Assembly: GCA_020722815.1 (NCBI GenBank)
Contig: DYKB01000065.1
Location: forward strand, 1-38,857
Direction: 5' to 3'
Origin: Caldithrix sp.
Lineage (GTDB): Bacteria > Zhuqueibacterota > Zhuqueibacteria > Thermofontimicrobiales > Sulfurfontimicrobiaceae
Length of the DNA: 38,857 nucleotides
Position numbers and translations under genes: made by a program. Numbering within the stretch: position 1 is the stretch's first letter; each line of letters opens with the position of its first letter. This document shows positions 3,827-12,903 of the stretch, piece by piece. The notes beneath the pieces are model-generated. The model did no database searches, was not told the DNA's origin, and was given only the letters and a program-made list of their open reading frames with translations.

Positions 3827-4087
3827 TTCCTGGGGTTAGAGATAATACTGAGTCATCTGAGGTTTTGTTTGTGTCATTTTTTCGGAATGAATCGAGGTAG
3901 CTTTATGCAACTTATCATCTGTGTTTTTTCTATAAAGGTGCTCCTTATATAGTGAATGGATATTTTAAATTCTGATTATTTCTATTAATTTTTCTTTGCA
4001 ATCTTTGTTTTAATTTAATTCAAATTATATGCCAATTTATCAATCATTATTTTTCAATAAGTTAGCAATCATCGTGAATTTGACACC

Positions 4088-4123
4088 ATGCAAAATTTGC
4101 AGATCATCCTGCAAATTTTGCAT
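4088..4123. promoter_or_regulatory. Perfect 15-bp inverted repeat ATGCAAAATTTGCAG-N6-CTGCAAATTTTGCAT. A third half-site lies near 4246..4262.
   Basis: Read directly from the sequence. Sits in the ~1 kb non-coding gap between the peptidase stop and the pspA start. Confidence 0.45.
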
Positions 4124-4461
4124 TTTTCGAAAATCGGGAAGTTTGTTTGCACAGGCATTAAGACTGATTTAACGGTGGTTCATTAAGAAATTTCAGAATA
4201 AAAAAAAGCTATGCCTGTATTTTTGGCATAAAATAGTAAAAAAGATGCAAATTTTGCAGGTTGGCATAATTTATTAAAAACCGAATAAGCATTTAAAATT
4301 ATTGAACTTACAGAATTTTGGATAAACCAAATTTTCCACTTTCGTTGATGGCCATTTTTTGAGGTTTCCAAAGAAAAAAATCGATGAAAAATGAAGTGAA
4401 ATTATTAAAATTCCCCCAACTCGAATTAATTAAACAAATTTCGGGGTGATAAAAAAGTGAA

Positions 4462-7400
4462 TTAGCGGAGGAGTAGCATTTTATAGACTTTCTTTAGTGC
4501 AGGCGTCGCGATTGAAGCATAATAAACACCGCTGGGAACAATTTTACCAATCGAATCCTTCCCATCCCAGCTAATTTTATACGAACCCGGAGAATTCCAC
4601 TCATCCCGAAGAACACAAAGCTGGTGGCCAAGGCTGTTATAAATAATGATACGGACCAGACCTGAATTTTCCTGAAAATACCTTATTTGGGTTATTGCAT
4701 TGAAGGGATTTGGGAAGGTCCCAACTGCATATTCTTGGATTATAGACTCCCGGGTATTTTTCAGGTCAGGAGGCGCGGGCGGAAGCAGCGTTAGATTATT
4801 AGGACTTGTGCCTGATATCAACTGGTCAGGATTTAGCGATATTTGAGCAGGACCGGATACGATATTTAAAGTACACTGTTGAGTTGCATAAATCCAATAG
4901 CCTTTCATCGGTTCCAAAAGTGCTGTCCCCGCGGGATAAATGGGAATCACCGATTGTGTATTCGTATCCCATCCATGAACGCTGGTGATAGTACCATCGG
5001 GTTCATCGTTGGGATCGTTAAACGTCACCGGCGCAAGAGGTGAACCGATTAAATGCCAGCCTGGGCTCAATGTTGATTGCAGTTCGTACACCGGAATCCC
5101 TGTAATCGTAAGCGTTTGAGGGCTAGCAACGTGAAGCCAATAGCCGCTATTAGGCAGCAAGCTATCGACCTGTTGATAAATCGTTTGACGATTATTGAAT
5201 ATGTACGCCGCCATATCGTGCGATAAAATTGCATTCACGCGCTGGTTTGCCGGATAAACTGGCACTGAAATAAGATACCAACCAGCTATCGGAAATTCAT
5301 AATTGACCTGAACCGGCCGGGGGGTATAGTCAATCTGAATTAATTGCGCGTGACTGATTTGTGCTGAACTTGAAATCGACATGTCGAGATTCAGATTACC
5401 ACCGCTCAACTGAAAGCAATAATTTTCAATCTGGGGAAGATCGGCAGGCTCCCATGATATTGAAACGGGATTTGCCAATGAATCACCCGTAATTATTTTC
5501 CAGCCGATACTATCGGTGTAAGGCAGGCACCAGGGCTGAATATCCCGAGCTAACGTGTCCTGATCATGTAAGAAAAAATTGGAATACGTCATTCTTACTG
5601 AATCCATCGCTTCATCGAGTCCGGCGTCAAAATCTCTGCTCGCACACGAATCTCCGCCAATCGTCAGATAATAAACAGAATCACCCGTTTCAATTCGGAT
5701 CGGTAACTCCCATTGTGCACCAATTCTACCCCAAATTGGCACCTGAAGAAATCGCTCATCTGAATCATTGCAGACAATTTTAATGAGGCTCTGCTCCTGG
5801 TTGCGACTGATGGCCAGAAAATTAACCCGCAGCGAACAACATTGTCCGGACTCCAGTAAAATGGGCAAAGCATCCAGATTCGTCAGGCGATAATTGGAGG
5901 AATCCAGACGGGTTTCCAACTCAATGTTGAGTAATTGAAGCGCCTGGTTCCCCTGATTAACAATTTTGAGGTATTGTTCTGAAAAAGAGCCCAATTTAAC
6001 CACGCCAAAATCCATTTTTTCGGGAAAAGTCTGAATTTCAGGTCCGAAATTACCAATTTGAAAAACAGAATCACTTTCATCTGAAATTATATCGTCCAGG
6101 CTGCTGATTTTGATTTTGCATTGCTTACTTTCTGGTCCGGAAACCAGCCACAATTCATTCTCATCATTGAAAGTCGAATCCAATAAAGTTTCCCAGCTAA
6201 TTCCATTGTCACGGGTCAATTCAATTTTAATCGCACGATCGTAATTTTTTGCAATCCAGGAAATTGTCTGATTTGAGCCAGGCGACCAAAGGTCTCCACT
6301 TCCCGGACACGTCAGGGAAAGTGATGGCGTGGCGTCGGTTATAAATTTTATTGATAAAGAACCGGTGGTGTTGGCTGCTACCAAAAGCGGCGTCTGTTGC
6401 GAGACAAAAACGCTCTCAGGATTTCGATTTTCATAATTCTCAAACTGCTCAATGGCAAAATAACCAATCCGGGCGGTTTCTGTCGTTGCATTATTTTGAA
6501 CTTTTAAACGCCAATAACCCTGATTTGCTTCGATATATTTGGATAATTCAGAAACATCAAGTACCATAAAATTTGCTGGAAACGAGGAATTACCGCCTTT
6601 TAATTGAAAATCATTAAAAGACTTCGTTTTATAGGTAATGCTTTCATCACAAACATCAATGGAAATCGCACATTGCCCCCGTTGGGGGTGTTGAATTTCG
6701 AAAACAGAAAGTAATTGAGGTTGATAATTTTCGTAATTTTGATAAACCATGTAAAATTTAATGCGCTCTTTTAAACACTGGTATGAAATATAATAAAATC
6801 CATCATGAACCTTTTCCCAATTATAAGTGCCAACGCCCCATGAATTTGCAATTTTGAATGCCCCCCGAAGGTCGGTTTTTCCATTTTCAGGGTAGGGACC
6901 AAAATTATCATCATAACCCACGATAACATTGGCATGATTTACCTCGGTTGCTAGGTAATTATCGGTTGTCCACAGGTCATCATTGGATAATTTTGCATAA
7001 TAACGCGCATCGATGGCAATCAGTGCCAGATTCTGATTGGCAAGTAAACTTTTAAGATTTTGCAGGGCATCATCGGAAGTTAAATCGGTGGTCGCAAAGG
7101 CCGTTGCCGAACGATAAAGGGGTGCTTCGCGCCAGGCTGTTTCGGTAGGCCAGGTGGTGGAATTAAATGGATTATAGGGCATATTTTCCCAGGTGGCACA
7201 ACCGATACGTTCCAGCAGATTCATAGCGTCATAAAAAGTGGCACCCTCATCTTTGCCATCGTTAATCTGGTGATAAATAAAATCTGGCGAAAAAATTTTG
7301 GCATGATATGATGGATCGGGCTGGCCATAATCGTTCTGATTCCAGACACATTTCGAAAGGTCCCATTGGTGTTCGCGTGCTTCCTGGAAGGTTTTAACAT

Positions 7401-7773
7401 AGTACCCACAGGCCCAGCCAATGCAGGAACCTTCACTGTATTGATTACCAATTGGCGGAAACCAGTGGGTCAGGGCATTATCCACCTTATTGGGGAGCTC
7501 CAGCGAAACCGATTGGACATATTCCAATCTAACCGGTGCGCTGGAAATTTCAGCCCACTCACTTTCTGTCGGCGGTCTCAAGCCCGTTCCCTGCCCGAGA
7601 ATCCGCTCATTATAATTTTTTCCTTCCTGGAAAGTACCCAAATATGCTCGTAATTCATCCAATTCTTTTACAGTCAGATGTCTTCTGGTTGTCTTTATGT
7701 GACGCGCAGCCGTCGAAGAAAAAAGTACGAGACAGGTAAACAGGAAAATAGTCCAACGTCGTTTCTGTAACAT
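4462..7773 (-). CDS. Secreted papain-family (C1) cysteine peptidase with a long beta-rich extension and a T9SS C-terminal sorting domain
   Basis: Signal peptide. Catalytic motifs QYSEGSCIGWACGYY (Cys), NHANVIVGYDDNF (His) and NSWGVGTYNW...GFYYISY (Asn/Trp). C-terminus ...SGVYYASIATPALKKVYKMLLLR is a typical Por_Secre_tail. Confidence 0.8.
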   Translation of the reverse strand: MLQKRRWTIFLFTCLVLFSSTAARHIKTTRRHLTVKELDELRAYLGTFQEGKNYNERILGQGTGLRPPTESEWAEISSAPVRLEYVQSVSLELPNKVDNALTHWFPPIGNQYSEGSCIGWACGYYVKTFQEAREHQWDLSKCVWNQNDYGQPDPSYHAKIFSPDFIYHQINDGKDEGATFYDAMNLLERIGCATWENMPYNPFNSTTWPTETAWREAPLYRSATAFATTDLTSDDALQNLKSLLANQNLALIAIDARYYAKLSNDDLWTTDNYLATEVNHANVIVGYDDNFGPYPENGKTDLRGAFKIANSWGVGTYNWEKVHDGFYYISYQCLKERIKFYMVYQNYENYQPQLLSVFEIQHPQRGQCAISIDVCDESITYKTKSFNDFQLKGGNSSFPANFMVLDVSELSKYIEANQGYWRLKVQNNATTETARIGYFAIEQFENYENRNPESVFVSQQTPLLVAANTTGSLSIKFITDATPSLSLTCPGSGDLWSPGSNQTISWIAKNYDRAIKIELTRDNGISWETLLDSTFNDENELWLVSGPESKQCKIKISSLDDIISDESDSVFQIGNFGPEIQTFPEKMDFGVVKLGSFSEQYLKIVNQGNQALQLLNIELETRLDSSNYRLTNLDALPILLESGQCCSLRVNFLAISRNQEQSLIKIVCNDSDERFLQVPIWGRIGAQWELPIRIETGDSVYYLTIGGDSCASRDFDAGLDEAMDSVRMTYSNFFLHDQDTLARDIQPWCLPYTDSIGWKIITGDSLANPVSISWEPADLPQIENYCFQLSGGNLNLDMSISSSAQISHAQLIQIDYTPRPVQVNYEFPIAGWYLISVPVYPANQRVNAILSHDMAAYIFNNRQTIYQQVDSLLPNSGYWLHVASPQTLTITGIPVYELQSTLSPGWHLIGSPLAPVTFNDPNDEPDGTITSVHGWDTNTQSVIPIYPAGTALLEPMKGYWIYATQQCTLNIVSGPAQISLNPDQLISGTSPNNLTLLPPAPPDLKNTRESIIQEYAVGTFPNPFNAITQIRYFQENSGLVRIIIYNSLGHQLCVLRDEWNSPGSYKISWDGKDSIGKIVPSGVYYASIATPALKKVYKMLLLR

Positions 7774-7866
7774 TAACAGGCTCCAAAAAAATCCAGCAAA
7801 TCAGCGACTTTCGATGTTTTAAACCGACCAGAGTTGGAGTAAGTCCGCCTTTACTTTAAAATACTA

Positions 7867-8060
7867 CCTGAAATTCTAAAATGAATCGTTTTCTCTGAAG
7901 TCTTGACCCCCTCTGTCTCTCCCCCATTTTCAAAAAGCGAAAATGGGGGAGAGAATCTCGCTTTATCTCCCCCAAAATTCCGCTTTTTAGAATTTGGGGA
8001 GGCAGGAGGGGGTCATACATTGATTCTGAACATCAAAAATTTCCATTTTAGAATTTTAGG
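7867..8060. mobile_element. MITE-like insertion of 194 bp. Imperfect 17-bp TIRs CCTGAAATTCTAAAATG / CATTTTAGAATTTTAGG. 5-bp target-site duplication TACTA on both sides (7862..7866 and 8061..8065).
   Basis: The interior is a nest of GC-rich hairpins (TCTCCCCCATTTTC/GAAAATGGGGGAGA; CTCCCCCAAAATTC/GAATTTGGGGAG; outer GACCCCCTC/GAGGGGGTC). Confidence 0.6.
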
Positions 8061-8496
8061 TACTACATGAAAACTTGCTTCTTTTTAACCGGGAGTTGGA
8101 TTCCATTTGACTATTTGTTCATCCTGATTTTCATTTTACATCACATTTGAATGTTTGTTGCTAATTTTAAATAATTGAAATTTCAATAATTCAATATTAT
8201 AAAATAGCAATTATTTTTTAAAAAGTCAAATATATTTTTTAACACGATTGCAATCAATTCTGCAGTCCTGTCAATTAAAATTTAACCCAATCTCCTTTTC
8301 CACCTGGCACTATTTCAAGTTTTATACCAGATTAGCGTAATCTAACATTATGATAATAAATAAGTTATATTTTTAAAATAATAACAATCTCCCCTAAAAA
8401 GAGACAAGAAATTTCGATTCGAACGATGGACAATAGATATAATTGTTAGAAATTTTGTATTAATTAACCAACTAAAATTATTCAGATACCCATAAA

Positions 8497-8533
8497 TAAA
8501 AAAAGCCCTGAAATCCATCTCAGGGCTTTTTGA
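8497..8533. terminator. Bidirectional intrinsic-terminator-like hairpin (A-run, AGCCCTGA / TCAGGGCT, T-run) in the middle of a 1.2-kb intergenic region
   Basis: AAAAAAAGCCCTGAAATCCATCTCAGGGCTTTTTG. Confidence 0.4.
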
Positions 8534-9023
8534 AAATAACCAGGAAAACGGAGGGAGGAAAAGTACGTTATCCTGCAAAAAATATTAGGGTGTATAAGGA
8601 AACTTGAAGGGACACACTGTCCCAATTTAATACAAAAAATCCAGCAATATATTTTGAAATGTATGCTATTTAATAAAATTATAATATATAGTCTGATTTA
8701 TTCCAATTTTGCTCCTTTAATTAAAATAGTGATATATTTTGTAATTGTCAAGTCTTTTTTCATCTTAATTCATTTTTTTTAATTCGGATTCCTGCTTAAA
8801 TGAACGAAGAGAGATTTAATGTACAGAACGAATACGTATATTACTCAGATTCCATAAAGAAATCGTAAAAAAGACTTGAATCTAATCAAATTGATCATTA
8901 TACTTTTATTGTTTTTCATCGAGATGCGGTTCTAATTTTTATGAAAAACACAGAAATGGCAGGTCTCAATAAAAAACGCGATTTATTTAATAGACCCTTA
9001 CTCATAAAATGGAGGAATTAAAA

Positions 9024-9875
9024 ATGAAACAATCAACACGCCGAGATTTTTTTAAACTAGCCGGAACCGGTGTTCTCTCCGCGTCATTTTTATCGTCAAT
9101 TAGTCCAGACGATTTAAGTGCCATGCCAGAGAAGAAATCCGGCCAACCCCTGCTCAATCTCGGAATGGCTTCCTATACTTTTCGAAAATTTAGTATGGAA
9201 AAGACTATTGAAATGACCAAAAGGCTGGGTCTGAAACACATTGCTTTTAAAAGCATGCACTTGCCACTGGAAAGTACAGCGGACGAGGTTCGGGCAGTCG
9301 CCGCAAAAGTAAAAGAAGCGGGTCTCGATCTCTATGGCTGTGGCGTTGTTTATATGAAAGATGAAGCATCCGTGCAGCAGGCCTTTGATTATGCAAAAGC
9401 GGCAGGGATGAAGGTCATTATCGGCGTTCCCAACCATGAGTTACTTGAACTTGTGGAACTGAAAGTTAAAGAATTCGATATTCAGGTTGCCATCCATAAT
9501 CATGGACCGGGCGACAAATTATATCCAACACCGGAGAGTATTTACGAGAAGATTAAAAAGCTTGATTCGCGAATTGGCCTCTGCGTTGATATTGGCCATA
9601 CCCAACGCGTCGCGATTGATCCCTCAGCGGCGGTAAAAAAATATCAAGATCGACTGCTCGATATCCATGTTAAAGACGTGAGTGCATCAACGCCTGAAGG
9701 TAAAACCGTCGAAATTGGACGCGGGGTAATTGATATTCCCAAATTTTTAAAAACACTTATTAAGTTGAAATATACCGGAAAAGTGTCACTTGAATACGAA
9801 AAGGATGAAGCCGATCCACTTCCGGGTGCGGCGGAATCGATTGGTTATTTGAGAGGGGTTTTGGCGTTACTATAG
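9024..9875 (+). CDS. Tat-signal sugar-phosphate isomerase/epimerase (xylose-isomerase-like TIM barrel). Start taken at the ATG preceded by GGAGG; the ORF track begins at 9009.
   Basis: Twin-arginine motif STRRDFFKLAG. TIM-barrel AP-endonuclease/xylose-isomerase-like fold motifs (IHNHGPGD, CVDIGH). Confidence 0.75.
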   Translation: MKQSTRRDFFKLAGTGVLSASFLSSISPDDLSAMPEKKSGQPLLNLGMASYTFRKFSMEKTIEMTKRLGLKHIAFKSMHLPLESTADEVRAVAAKVKEAGLDLYGCGVVYMKDEASVQQAFDYAKAAGMKVIIGVPNHELLELVELKVKEFDIQVAIHNHGPGDKLYPTPESIYEKIKKLDSRIGLCVDIGHTQRVAIDPSAAVKKYQDRLLDIHVKDVSASTPEGKTVEIGRGVIDIPKFLKTLIKLKYTGKVSLEYEKDEADPLPGAAESIGYLRGVLALL

Positions 9876-9951: not shown

Positions 9952-12903
9952 TTACTTTTGCTCCGTATAAATCGTCACCATCACTCGCCGATTCAACTGT
10001 CTTCCCAGTGCTGTTTCATTATCCCCAAGGAGAATCTTTTCGTCAGTTGGAGAAAGAAATTCCAGCGGTTCATTTTCACCATGTCCTTCCGGCGCATCGA
10101 TCCGGTGGCGAATTTGATTAAAAATATCCGGATATCGTGATTTTAAATCTTTCACAAATTGCTCATGGAAAATTCTGGCGCGGCGAATGGAAAGAATTTT
10201 ATTCACTCCTTCCGGGCCAACTGCACAGCCATGGCCGACAAATTTGATTCGCTTATCCGGTGACTGTATTAAATGCGGTATCATATCTTCCAGATTTGAC
10301 CAGTAAAAATTATAATACGGTTTGGCCTCGGCAAATTTGGCGATGAGATAATAAGATCGTTCAATATTTGTTTTTTCAGTATTTAAAACAGCATTCTTTA
10401 GTCGGGTGCGAAATTTACGGCCCAATGAATCAGTTAATGTTAATGAATAACCCAGATTTTGAATTTCACCATTAATCTGCTCCTTTAAACGTGATTCAGA
10501 TATTTGCCAATCAAATGGCCTGAAGAGTCGATTTTTAGCAAATTTTGATAAAATACTAACCAGATCGGAGGTTTCATTTAACTCAAGGGCCATAAATGCG
10601 CTTTCAAGCGCAACGGCACTGCTGATTTCACCATTAAATTGGATGGGAAAAAATTCTTTTCGCTTGTTTACCGATTGAACCGGATAAAATAAGACTTTTT
10701 CAATCGATTCTTCAATAGAAATCGTAACGTATCTTCGTTCTTCCAGGATGTGTCGCGCATCGTTTTGATTTTTTGGTAATGTGCGTTTTGCAAGGAGTTC
10801 ACCAGGCATTATCATAATTTGTTCTGAACGAACTCCCAATTTTATCAGTGAATCACGGACCGCCAGGGCGCGCGCGTTCGCCAGATTCACATTTATTTCA
10901 TCAGCGTTGGGATCAGCCGTGCCCTGGAGCCTGACTTTCAAATCCCGCTGCTCATTCAATCTTCTGGCAAAATAGGTGAGCGGCGGCAGAACGGAAGAAA
11001 TTTTCCCAAATTGATTTTTGATAACAGCACTATTTTGCCCGAAAAAGATTTTCCCGATGTAGGGCAACTCAAAAATTTTCGTATAGACTTTTGCTGCCAA
11101 TAGTGTATCCGCAGTAAAGAATCGCCCTTTGGGAATTGTAAAAAACTTTTCTGTTCGCTGTGTATGCAATTTTGTGGTTAAGCTATCTTCCGACTTCACT
11201 ATTTTGGCAGAAATTGCATGTAACCCCGGTGTCGAAGTGTGCCATCCAATGACAACGGCAGTTGAATCACCTGATTTTAAATCAGGAATATCTTTTTTTG
11301 CCATTGCAGGACGAACAGAATGGATCGAATCCGAATTGACCGATTTCTCGGGATTCGCTTTGGCCGGAAAATTATCAAAAAGCTGAAGCTGAAAATTTTT
11401 CGCGACCTTTTCACCTAAATTCTTAATGACAATTTTCAATTTCCCCTGGTAATCATCTTCAGTAATCCAGGAATCCGGTTCAAAAACAAAAGCCAAAATC
11501 TCGGGATCAGGCGCTGTCAAAGTAAAGTTGGCAATTTTATGGCGGCCCCGGTTTGCGAAACGAATATGCTGATCCCGATCATAAGCAAAAACCAGCCAAT
11601 AATATTTACCGGAATTTAACCGGGTGCTCAAAAATTCGGTTTGAAGCAGTCGTTCATTGATATGGAAGTTCATTTTCGGTAATTCATAAATGAGACTGAC
11701 GGGATCTTCCTGACTTTTTTTAATAACGTCCACCAACTTAACGCTATCTTTGCTGGCAAGCAGCCAATAGTTCAAATTATCATAAAGATCAGGATCGCGC
11801 GATGCTTCCCAGCGAAAAGGAACGGCATCTTCATCAATTTGAGCCCCCATTTCAGGCGATTCCATTTGAAATCGCTCGGGAAGCAGCGGTTGATGGGTCA
11901 CCGTCCCATGATAGGGCGCATCAAAAAAGCTATTTTCCTGATTAAGCGCCAGATCAACCCGGAGGGCATTATTTCGGCCTGGAAATAAGTTTTGAAAAAC
12001 CTGATCATTCAGTTGAAGGCTGCCCCCAACCGTTAAATTTCCCAACAAATTATCTTCCAGGCTAAATCCCATCTGAATTGCAATAAAATTCCGCCAGGAA
12101 AGTTCAGTCCCTAACGATAAAAAGCCTTCTTCATCCTTCACCTGACGGTAATCGATACCCGTGCTCAATTGAACTCCCCGATGTGAACCCAGATGCAGGG
12201 CGGTACCCATCCGAAAAGTTTCGGGAAGGGGTGTTCCTTGATTATTGTAGTGAATTTCGTCGCCCAGATTATTGATACCAATACCGGCGGTAAAAATCGC
12301 GTACTCAAAAGCATTAAATGATGCCGACTCAAAATTAATTCTCGGCGAACGAAACAGAATCCCTGTATCAAAAATAACGGCATTGGCATTAAAATCTGCC
12401 AATTGGCTGTTGAAATATTTGATATTAAATCCCCAGAGCAAATTGGGTGTCAGCTTACTTAAGGGTTGACCAATACTCATGGTTGCCACGAGATGATGCC
12501 CACCAACGCCAGCCGTGGTCGCGCGCGCACTATTAAATGTAGGAATTCCCAGATAATTCACCCCCAAAATCATTCGTGTCTGCTGGCTGATGGGATTCCG
12601 CAGTCGACGACCAAAGAGGAAAGTCGTATGATAAATATCCGAAACCCAGGTTGAATAACTGCTGGACCAGAACCATTCACGGCTCAAGCCGGTGGCTGCC
12701 GGATTTGAAAAATAGGAATATGAATAATCGAGTACACTGGTTGTGCTACCGGCCATCCCGACACCGCGTGCATCGGGAACGATTTTCAAGTAGCCAATTC
12801 CGGAGCGAATTTGCCCATAACTTAATCCAAAGATCAGGAGGATGAGACAAAATCCGGTAGTTACATTCTTTATATGGTTTATTTGTATTTTTCTCATGTT
12901 CAC
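9952..12903 (-). CDS. Outer-membrane protein: N-terminal beta-barrel (PorP/SprF- or PorV-like, uncertain), central CARDB-like region, two C-terminal OmpA-like peptidoglycan-binding domains. Putative anchor/partner for the upstream T9SS adhesin.
   Basis: Signal peptide. Aromatic-rich alternating beta-strand N-terminal ~330 aa ending in a C-terminal Phe-type barrel pattern. OmpA-like cores LQGTADPNADEINVNLANARALAVRDSL and FVGHGCAVGPEGVNKILSIRRARIF...APEGHGENEP. 9 bp downstream of the adhesin gene. Confidence 0.55.
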   Translation of the reverse strand: MNMRKIQINHIKNVTTGFCLILLIFGLSYGQIRSGIGYLKIVPDARGVGMAGSTTSVLDYSYSYFSNPAATGLSREWFWSSSYSTWVSDIYHTTFLFGRRLRNPISQQTRMILGVNYLGIPTFNSARATTAGVGGHHLVATMSIGQPLSKLTPNLLWGFNIKYFNSQLADFNANAVIFDTGILFRSPRINFESASFNAFEYAIFTAGIGINNLGDEIHYNNQGTPLPETFRMGTALHLGSHRGVQLSTGIDYRQVKDEEGFLSLGTELSWRNFIAIQMGFSLEDNLLGNLTVGGSLQLNDQVFQNLFPGRNNALRVDLALNQENSFFDAPYHGTVTHQPLLPERFQMESPEMGAQIDEDAVPFRWEASRDPDLYDNLNYWLLASKDSVKLVDVIKKSQEDPVSLIYELPKMNFHINERLLQTEFLSTRLNSGKYYWLVFAYDRDQHIRFANRGRHKIANFTLTAPDPEILAFVFEPDSWITEDDYQGKLKIVIKNLGEKVAKNFQLQLFDNFPAKANPEKSVNSDSIHSVRPAMAKKDIPDLKSGDSTAVVIGWHTSTPGLHAISAKIVKSEDSLTTKLHTQRTEKFFTIPKGRFFTADTLLAAKVYTKIFELPYIGKIFFGQNSAVIKNQFGKISSVLPPLTYFARRLNEQRDLKVRLQGTADPNADEINVNLANARALAVRDSLIKLGVRSEQIMIMPGELLAKRTLPKNQNDARHILEERRYVTISIEESIEKVLFYPVQSVNKRKEFFPIQFNGEISSAVALESAFMALELNETSDLVSILSKFAKNRLFRPFDWQISESRLKEQINGEIQNLGYSLTLTDSLGRKFRTRLKNAVLNTEKTNIERSYYLIAKFAEAKPYYNFYWSNLEDMIPHLIQSPDKRIKFVGHGCAVGPEGVNKILSIRRARIFHEQFVKDLKSRYPDIFNQIRHRIDAPEGHGENEPLEFLSPTDEKILLGDNETALGRQLNRRVMVTIYTEQK

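Follow-up and report, generated by a model that had tools for sequence, protein, structure and literature searches.

Among described small bacterial elements, Correia elements (CREE) of Neisseria, ERIC and RUP are non-coding, carry terminal inverted repeats and AT-rich duplicated targets, fold back on themselves, and stand between genes in many copies. Transcripts of Correia and ERIC elements undergo processing at the hairpins and can change how neighbouring genes are expressed. Phages have repeated intergenic hairpin sites of their own, such as the RNase III processing sites of T7 and the hairpin promoters of N4, and transposons of the Tn3 family have ends of about 38 bp that start with GGGG. 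The duplicated target of CREE is mostly TA (PMC9330008), and duplications of 5 bp accompany both the non-autonomous Tn3-derived inverted-repeat miniature elements, or TIMEs (PMC4133298), and insertion sequences of the IS1380 family (ISEcp1, IS1247, ISPme1), with ISEcp1 having the IRL CCTAGATTCTACGT and 5-bp AT-rich direct repeats (PMC6061673), and IS1247 being 1672 bp long with inverted repeats of 16/13 and a direct repeat of 5 (PMC3281130). The element that we describe here lies in a window of 38,857 bp (the whole stretch of DNA analysed, contig DYKB01000065.1 of assembly GCA_020722815.1). It is known in kind, and represents a new MITE family of an uncultured phylum, which resembles CREE, ERIC and RUP in the features listed above but differs from them in its ends, in the length of its duplication, in its partner family, and in a core apparently borrowed from a phage-type element. 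We think it very probable that this element is a non-autonomous MITE that was inserted via an IS1380-type transposase and that carries, as its core, a phage-homologous fold-back cargo.

Structurally, the element is 194 bp long and spans 7867–8060 between two TACTA pentamers, with the whole region 7862–8065 reading TACTA, CCTGAAATTCTAAAATG ... CATTTTAGAATTTTAGG, TACTA (Table 1). The left end CCTGAAATTCTAAAATG matches the reverse complement of the right end, CCTAAAATTCTAAAATG, at 16 of 17 positions, which confirms the imperfect 17-bp terminal inverted repeats, flanked by TACTA, of a preliminary description made from the window alone. Perfect matches to CCTRAAATTCTAAAATG occur in the window solely at these two ends; with up to three mismatches allowed, the end 17-mer is matched five times against 0.87 expected, a count reached in none of 100 shuffles, and the window holds a single copy of the element. 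The interior had been described as GC-rich hairpins in an AT-rich spacer, as is indeed the case (GC content of 0.50 in the core versus 0.30 in the 1.2-kb spacer), and it resolves into two hairpins and an outer stem of 9 bp that is formed by the C-rich boxes of two inverted units, GACCCCCTC at 7905–7913 pairing with GAGGGGGTC at 8006–8014. The RNA folding proposed as a check was carried out and gave a strong fold for both strands, of about −84 kcal/mol, with z-scores of −8.6 (plus strand) and −7.6 (minus strand) relative to dinucleotide shuffles. The element itself encodes nothing: its open reading frames reach only 54–55 aa, cross the hairpins, and have other copies of the element as their sole database relatives. 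A G-quadruplex or i-motif reading of the C and G runs was rejected, as neither strand has four runs, and BLAST searches of the element against plasmids gave no match.

Table 1. Coordinates of the element, its parts and the adjacent divergent gene in the window, and of the copies of phage element U in one viral contig.
Feature	Position	Strand	Basis or remark
1103-aa ORF	4462–7773	−	divergent from isomerase gene
Target-site duplication, left copy	7862–7866	.	TACTA, read from sequence
Left terminal inverted repeat, CCTGAAATTCTAAAATG	7867–7883	+	sequence; IRL-like
Left arm, AT-rich, poorly conserved	7884–7904	.	copy alignment; 20 bp shorter than in canonical 212–214-bp copies
Unit U1: C-rich box GACCCCCTC (7905–7913) and hairpin 1	7903–7952	+	covariance model
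Hairpin 1	7916–7931 / 7939–7954	+	perfect 16-bp arms, 7-nt loop AAAAAGC
11-nt spacer separating the two inverted units	7955–7965	.	sequence
Unit U2, inverted relative to U1: box GACCCCCTC (8006–8014) and hairpin 2	7965–8016	−	sequence, model matches
Hairpin 2, imperfect	7966–7980 / 7990–8001		part of U2
Right arm, AT-rich	8017–8043	.	copy alignment
Right terminal inverted repeat, reverse complement CCTAAAATTCTAAAATG	8044–8060	−	sequence; IRR-like
Target-site duplication, right copy	8061–8065	.	TACTA
Phage element U, copies in viral contig L265 (its own numbering)	1043–1104, 6915–6976, 9212–9268, 11562–11620, 12063–12127

The orthologous locus of a close relative, which had been chosen in advance as the refutation test, favours the MITE reading. 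This genome (GCA_016932535.1, KSB1; locus L128), whose isomerase is 98% identical to that of the window, lacks the element and has one TACTA (L128 5005–5009) at a junction that reads ...TTTAAAATACTACATGAAAAC... and is also given as ...CTTTAAAATACTACATGAAAAC.... To the left, it is 98% identical to window 7701–7873 (173 nt), and to the right its alignment resumes at window 8061, with 97 of the first 100 nt past the duplication identical. At the junction the window therefore exceeds its relative by exactly 194 + 5 bp, the trace of a transposon insertion with a 5-bp target duplication, and thus the window element was inserted. The alignment dates this insertion to after the split from the lineage of GCA_016932535.1, and the earlier characterization of the transposition as recent holds in that sense, but not as a matter of sequence age, the window copy being only 87.5% identical to the family consensus, with a 20-bp deletion in its left arm and no sibling close enough for dating. 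Given that a single empty-site genome was recovered and that a 5-bp direct repeat can mediate slipped-strand deletion, one could instead suppose that the element is ancestral, that a precise deletion between the TACTA repeats removed it from the L128 lineage, and that the window records no insertion at all. Yet identical ends with 5-bp duplications are found at dozens of unrelated sites, and the 5-mer differs each time, so the duplication is made by insertion; as loss would in any case still need an earlier insertion of the element, we regard this history as very unlikely. The inserted element also acts as an assembly-breaking repeat: an independently assembled Logan contig (SRR1559028; L127) that is otherwise identical to the window begins at 8036, within the MITE and 25 bp short of its right end, and contig breaks of this sort are typical of repeats or of presence/absence polymorphisms.

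With their CCT start, the ATTCTA that they contain, and the 5-bp AT-rich duplication beside them, the ends first led us to guess at the IS1380 family, that of ISEcp1, and this was confirmed by the literature on ISEcp1 and by the transposase found in elements with matching ends. One such element, of 1613 bp (L192, positions 10–1622 of a 1738-bp contig from the metagenome scan), is flanked by TAATA and TAGTA, ends in CCTAAAATTCTAAAATG and CCTAAAAATCTAAAATA, and contains a single ORF of 435 aa, whose scores are 242.9 bits (cut-off 180) with the NCBIfam model NF033539, “IS1380 family transposase”, and 144.7 bits with Pfam PF13701. Related transposase genes, 49–99% identical, abut the same end at four further loci (L197, L199, L201, L237), and a protein search with the L192 transposase located two elements in KSB1 genomes, one of 1635 bp in GCA_034506395.1 (L250; ends CCTAAAATTCTAAAACA and CCTAGATTTCTAAAATG, the latter its IRR) and one of 1660 bp in GCA_014381395.1 and many read-set assemblies (L252–L259; ends CTTAAAATTCTAAAACA and CTTAAATTTCTAAAATG), with a perfect TATTA duplication at L253. 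These autonomous elements measure 1.61–1.66 kb and encode one DDE transposase of 435–442 aa. The end sequence expected of partner IS1380-family elements is CCTRAAATTCTAAAA, and the two ends of each element agree with the 17-mer of the MITE at 17 and 15 positions (L192), 15 and 15 (L250), or 14 and 15 (the L252 type) out of 17. As in the IS1380 family at large, these are ends that start with CCT and contain ATTCTA (compare the ISEcp1 IRL with the L250 IRR), accompanied by 5-bp AT-rich duplications, whereas the window element differs from the family in having no transposase and in having only about 20 nt per end in common with the insertion sequences. The partners found here come from KSB1 and Ignavibacteria, with transposases that are only remotely similar to those encoded by the Proteobacteria elements.

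The MITE even preserves the distinction between the left and right ends of the insertion sequences, in that its left end is followed by AA (...ATGAAA), like the transposase-start end of L197 and L237, and its right end by GAA (...ATGGAA), like the transposase-stop end of L192 and L199. Similarity to the insertion sequences ceases after about 20–30 nt, and thus the MITE does not derive by simple internal deletion from any of the insertion sequences that were recovered. On the points by which dependence on IS1380 can be judged from sequence, namely the match of the ends and the 5-bp AT-rich duplication, the MITE has the properties of an IS1380-dependent element. The duplication of 5 bp would also suit a TIME, a described class (PMC4133298) that is likewise non-autonomous, and the element might on that ground be assigned to the Tn3 derivatives; against this, its ends are 17–20 bp long and start with CCT rather than being the 38-bp ends of Tn3 type, and they are identical to the ends of elements that carry an IS1380-family, not a Tn3, transposase, so we consider a Tn3 origin extremely improbable. 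In the literature that we searched, no paper describing IS1380-derived MITEs was found.

Mechanistically, we infer that an IS1380-type transposase actually moved the window copy. In the pathway that we propose, a DDE transposase of the IS1380 family would come in trans from an insertion sequence of 1.6 kb that has matching ends and lies elsewhere in the genome, and the terminal inverted repeats of 17–20 bp would serve as its putative binding and cleavage sites. The element would then be joined to a staggered 5-bp cut at TACTA in the AT-rich spacer, in keeping with a preference for T-N-W-N-A, and repair of the stagger would leave TACTA duplicated; the chemistry of the move may have been either cut-and-paste or copying. 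The fold-back centre, made of two inverted hairpin units of about 50 nt, would be propagated by the family as cargo.

Copies of the same family were recovered with the 55-aa ORF as a query and by a metagenome scan. The ORF has four relatives among 5.8 billion proteins, all of them spurious ORFs inside other copies of the element, and the contigs of these four proteins carry copies of 212–214 bp. In total, the protein query and the scan yielded 16 or more family copies on other contigs of KSB1 type, with 212–214 bp as the canonical length and with several copies ending at contig edges, including in the Ga0172362/3 metagenomes. One contig (L133), with genes that share 90% identity or more with proteins named candidate division KSB1, holds two copies with the duplications GAATA and TTATA, and the duplications of three others (L134, L135, L136) are degraded to a 3/5 match. 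Mean pairwise identity among full-length copies is 0.93–0.95 in the ends and 0.92–0.94 in the GC-rich core, and 0.76–0.87 in the arms between them. A core conserved as much as the ends, together with the very stable fold (z about −8), might be taken to mean that the element is resident in the divergent promoter region as a structured RNA gene or a cis-regulatory element, of whose fold the inverted repeats would simply be part. This we judge highly improbable, considering that the element is absent from the orthologous spacer of the close relative, that its copies occur in unrelated contexts with target duplications, and that it matches no family in Rfam 15 (the best scores, 15–27 bits, are with miRNA models that have thresholds of 60–100).

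The ends of the MITE are shared well beyond this family. As the 17-mer end alone gave more than 120 single chance matches in viral contigs, we scanned with a longer, 22-position pattern, CCTRAAATTCTAAAATGRAAWK, which identified 66 loci in metagenomes and 40 in species-representative genomes, the latter from KSB1/Zhuqueibacterota, Ignavibacteria and several MAGs that bear the label Cytophagia or Bacteroidales. Most matches delimit elements of 150–450 bp that have quite different interiors, all of them long fold-backs. In the paired-end set of 66 unique elements (130–450 bp), the flanking duplication is perfect (5/5) in 21, or 22 with the window copy included, and 4/5 in another 16, as against 0 and 1 of 66 with a perfect 5-bp duplication in shifted controls. 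The perfect duplications have the consensus T-N-W-N-A (19 of the 21 begin with T, and 19 end with A), and TACTA conforms to it. With an empty site, a multi-copy family at unrelated sites and matching autonomous IS1380-family elements, the MITE reading of the preliminary description is borne out, and every feature of a MITE that could be tested is present here: the element is short (below a limit of about 500 bp) and lacks a transposase gene, has terminal inverted repeats, has a target-site duplication together with an empty site, is multi-copy, and has a matching autonomous element. Candidate transposases among the ORFs of 350–725 aa beside solitary ends in the genome loci were rejected on identification as ProRS, NuoF, Wzz, a histidine kinase and an S46 peptidase, and three end-pattern matches (L160, L162, L165) were set aside as chance or coding matches.

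Several observations concern the arrangement of these elements. MITEs with these ends lie side by side at six loci (L155, L177, L195, L206, L221, L231), only 5 bp apart in L155 (4936–5100 and 5106 onwards), and some loci have clusters of 4–9 ends within 1 kb, which suggests either insertion hot spots or insertion beside existing copies. In L133, a second, unrelated MITE (4032–4263) is nested in the core of a family copy (3870–4316); it has the ends CATAGCTGTCAGGTTAAGG, a duplication of about 9–10 bp (GAGGCAGGAG), and the hairpins CCTCACCCC / CCCTCTCCC...GGGAGAGGG. A similar C-rich fold-back is nested in a 408-bp element of L153 (2262–2669), and GC-rich hairpin modules recur inside these AT-rich MITEs.

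The core of the MITE leads to phages. A search of viral contigs with hairpin 1 gave matches in GC-rich phage contigs, and, leaving aside an indel of 9 nt, unit U1 of the MITE and one L121 phage copy agree at 45 of 46 positions. A covariance model that was built solely on 27 phage copies finds the MITE at 7903–7952 over the full model length (43.9 bits, E = 1.6e-12), at 7918–8016 on the minus strand (30.5 bits, E = 3e-8) and at 7965–8001 on the plus strand (E = 0.0017); all its matches in the window are inside the MITE, the next best having E = 0.65, and its only matches in 780 kb of bacterial loci are copies of this MITE family. Compared with the phage element, which we call U, the core consists of two inverted copies of a unit of about 50 nt: the box and the hairpin P2 are present, the hairpin P1 is absent, and the setting is the inside of a MITE rather than a gene boundary. 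These matches show the core to be homologous, as far as sequence and model scores can tell, to phage element U. Being a doublet of inverted hairpin units, the core is also REPIN-like, and it could be imagined as REP/REPIN-like units moved by a RAYT (IS200/IS605-type) enzyme, with the outer repeats incidental. REP/REPIN units, however, have no target duplication, are scattered on their own and go with a RAYT gene. The unit never occurs outside the family bounded by terminal inverted repeats in the 780 kb of bacterial loci, and it is the outer repeats, not the core, that mark the insertion boundaries and adjoin the duplication; we give this idea next to no credence. The window element does not fit the description of a TIME, of a REP/REPIN or of a known RNA family.

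In phages, U is defined by a C-rich box, P1 and P2, with the conserved base CTCCCCCAWWT...AWWTGGGGGAG. Read from 5′ to 3′, it comprises a stop codon, rACCCCCT, CTGTC, P1, GACATCT and CCCCCAAAT, followed by the P2 apex (a variable hairpin), ATTTrGGGGAGA, 16–28 nt that include a ribosome-binding site, and the ATG of the next gene. P1 is a stem of 4–9 bp with loops such as TTC, AGTA and TGAA, and P2 has the conserved base CTCCCCCAAAT...ATTTGGGGGAG. A scan keyed on the P1 flanks identified 40 viral contigs, of which 5 are chance matches (the viral loci with U being L121–L125, L243–L249 and L260–L294). Two contigs, L265 and L266, have 5–6 copies per 12 kb; every copy starts at a stop codon, and each stands before a different gene. 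L265, which encodes a large terminase and a head protease, is from a tailed phage (the positions of its copies are in Table 1). The inner pairs of P1 occur in more than 10 different compensating forms; in the base of P2, three pairs show changes on both sides, and 91% of cells are paired versus at most 64% with slid partners. Of 27 copies, 15 have a C·A mismatch in P2. In 31 of 34 unique copies, the better fold is that of the strand complementary to the phage genes, and of the G-U pairs in these 34 copies 33 are on the complementary strand versus 4 on the sense strand. The structured strand of U thus appears to be the template strand, and this bias argues against a simple mRNA hairpin. U is similar to the RNase III sites of T7 and the hairpin promoters of N4 in being a repeated intergenic two-hairpin element of phages, an analogy that concerns the core unit alone; it is dissimilar in its bias toward the strand complementary to the genes, and we claim no sequence relation. 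Searches with U, phage copies included, found no family in Rfam 15, there was no real match among 50,697 deposited phage genomes, and a literature search for C-rich palindromes returned nothing relevant.

Beyond homology, the core could be a functional phage-type module, with the KSB1 MITE family having captured two inverted copies of U and now spreading them in host genomes, where the core is kept as conserved as the putatively transposase-binding ends. This is a tentative idea that we consider possible but rather improbable. If it is true, U itself would be an undescribed, widespread structured element of phages, and, should U serve in processing, in termination or as a single-strand promoter, the MITE would make a phage regulatory signal portable and independent of orientation. 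A phage-derived core that is conserved as strongly as the ends is a feature that specialists might not expect, and it connects a MITE of bacteria with an intergenic phage element that is conserved, covarying and unannotated and that is a candidate for a new structured nucleic-acid motif. More broadly, these data document an active system of IS1380-type transposons and MITEs in the uncultured KSB1/Zhuqueibacterota and neighbours, with the defined end CCTRAAATTCTAAAATG and the target preference T-N-W-N-A, that can be used for masking assembly-breaking repeats, for following strain-level insertion polymorphisms, and for looking at expression changes beside insertions.

At its insertion site, the element lies between divergent genes. 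Its left end is 93 bp upstream of the ATG (7773, minus strand) of the 1103-aa ORF, in agreement with the distance of about 100 bp given in the preliminary description, but the label that came with it, a T9SS C1-peptidase, could not be retained: sequence searches in Pfam, NCBIfam and PDB detected no C1 or other peptidase domain in this protein, which has Ig-like and choice-of-anchor D domains and a sub-threshold C-terminal T9SS tail (21.8 bits versus a cut-off of 23), and whose N-terminal 560 aa have no match in Pfam or among PDB sequences. The divergent gene on the other side encodes a sugar phosphate isomerase/epimerase (PF01261), with a longest ORF of 288 aa starting at 9009 and a called product of 283 aa starting at about 9024, 5 codons past the start of the longest ORF. 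Between the window and its L128 relative, conservation is 97–98% over the 93 bp from the MITE to the start codon and over the 100 bp that adjoin it on the other side, as it is in the flanking genes (97–98%), versus 82.7% identity in the remaining spacer (window 8061–9100 against L128 5005–6077). The insertion site is therefore in a conserved part of the spacer, which is probably regulatory. That the element might supply or disrupt a promoter there, as the preliminary description suggested, is speculative. The spacer between these divergent genes otherwise evolves fast, with the conserved island standing at the insertion point. A scan of the spacer for the sigma-70 consensus gave weak matches (9–10 of 12 positions), this consensus being uninformative for the KSB1 phylum. 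In the middle of the 1.25-kb AT-rich spacer there is also a strong terminator-like hairpin on the minus strand (window 8500–8531), with 14 pairs followed by a T-run, whose sole Rfam match is a weak one to MicC (29 bits versus a threshold of 90). It adjoins small ORFs (8348–8578, 76 aa), and a small gene or small RNA that is missing from the annotation may be located there.
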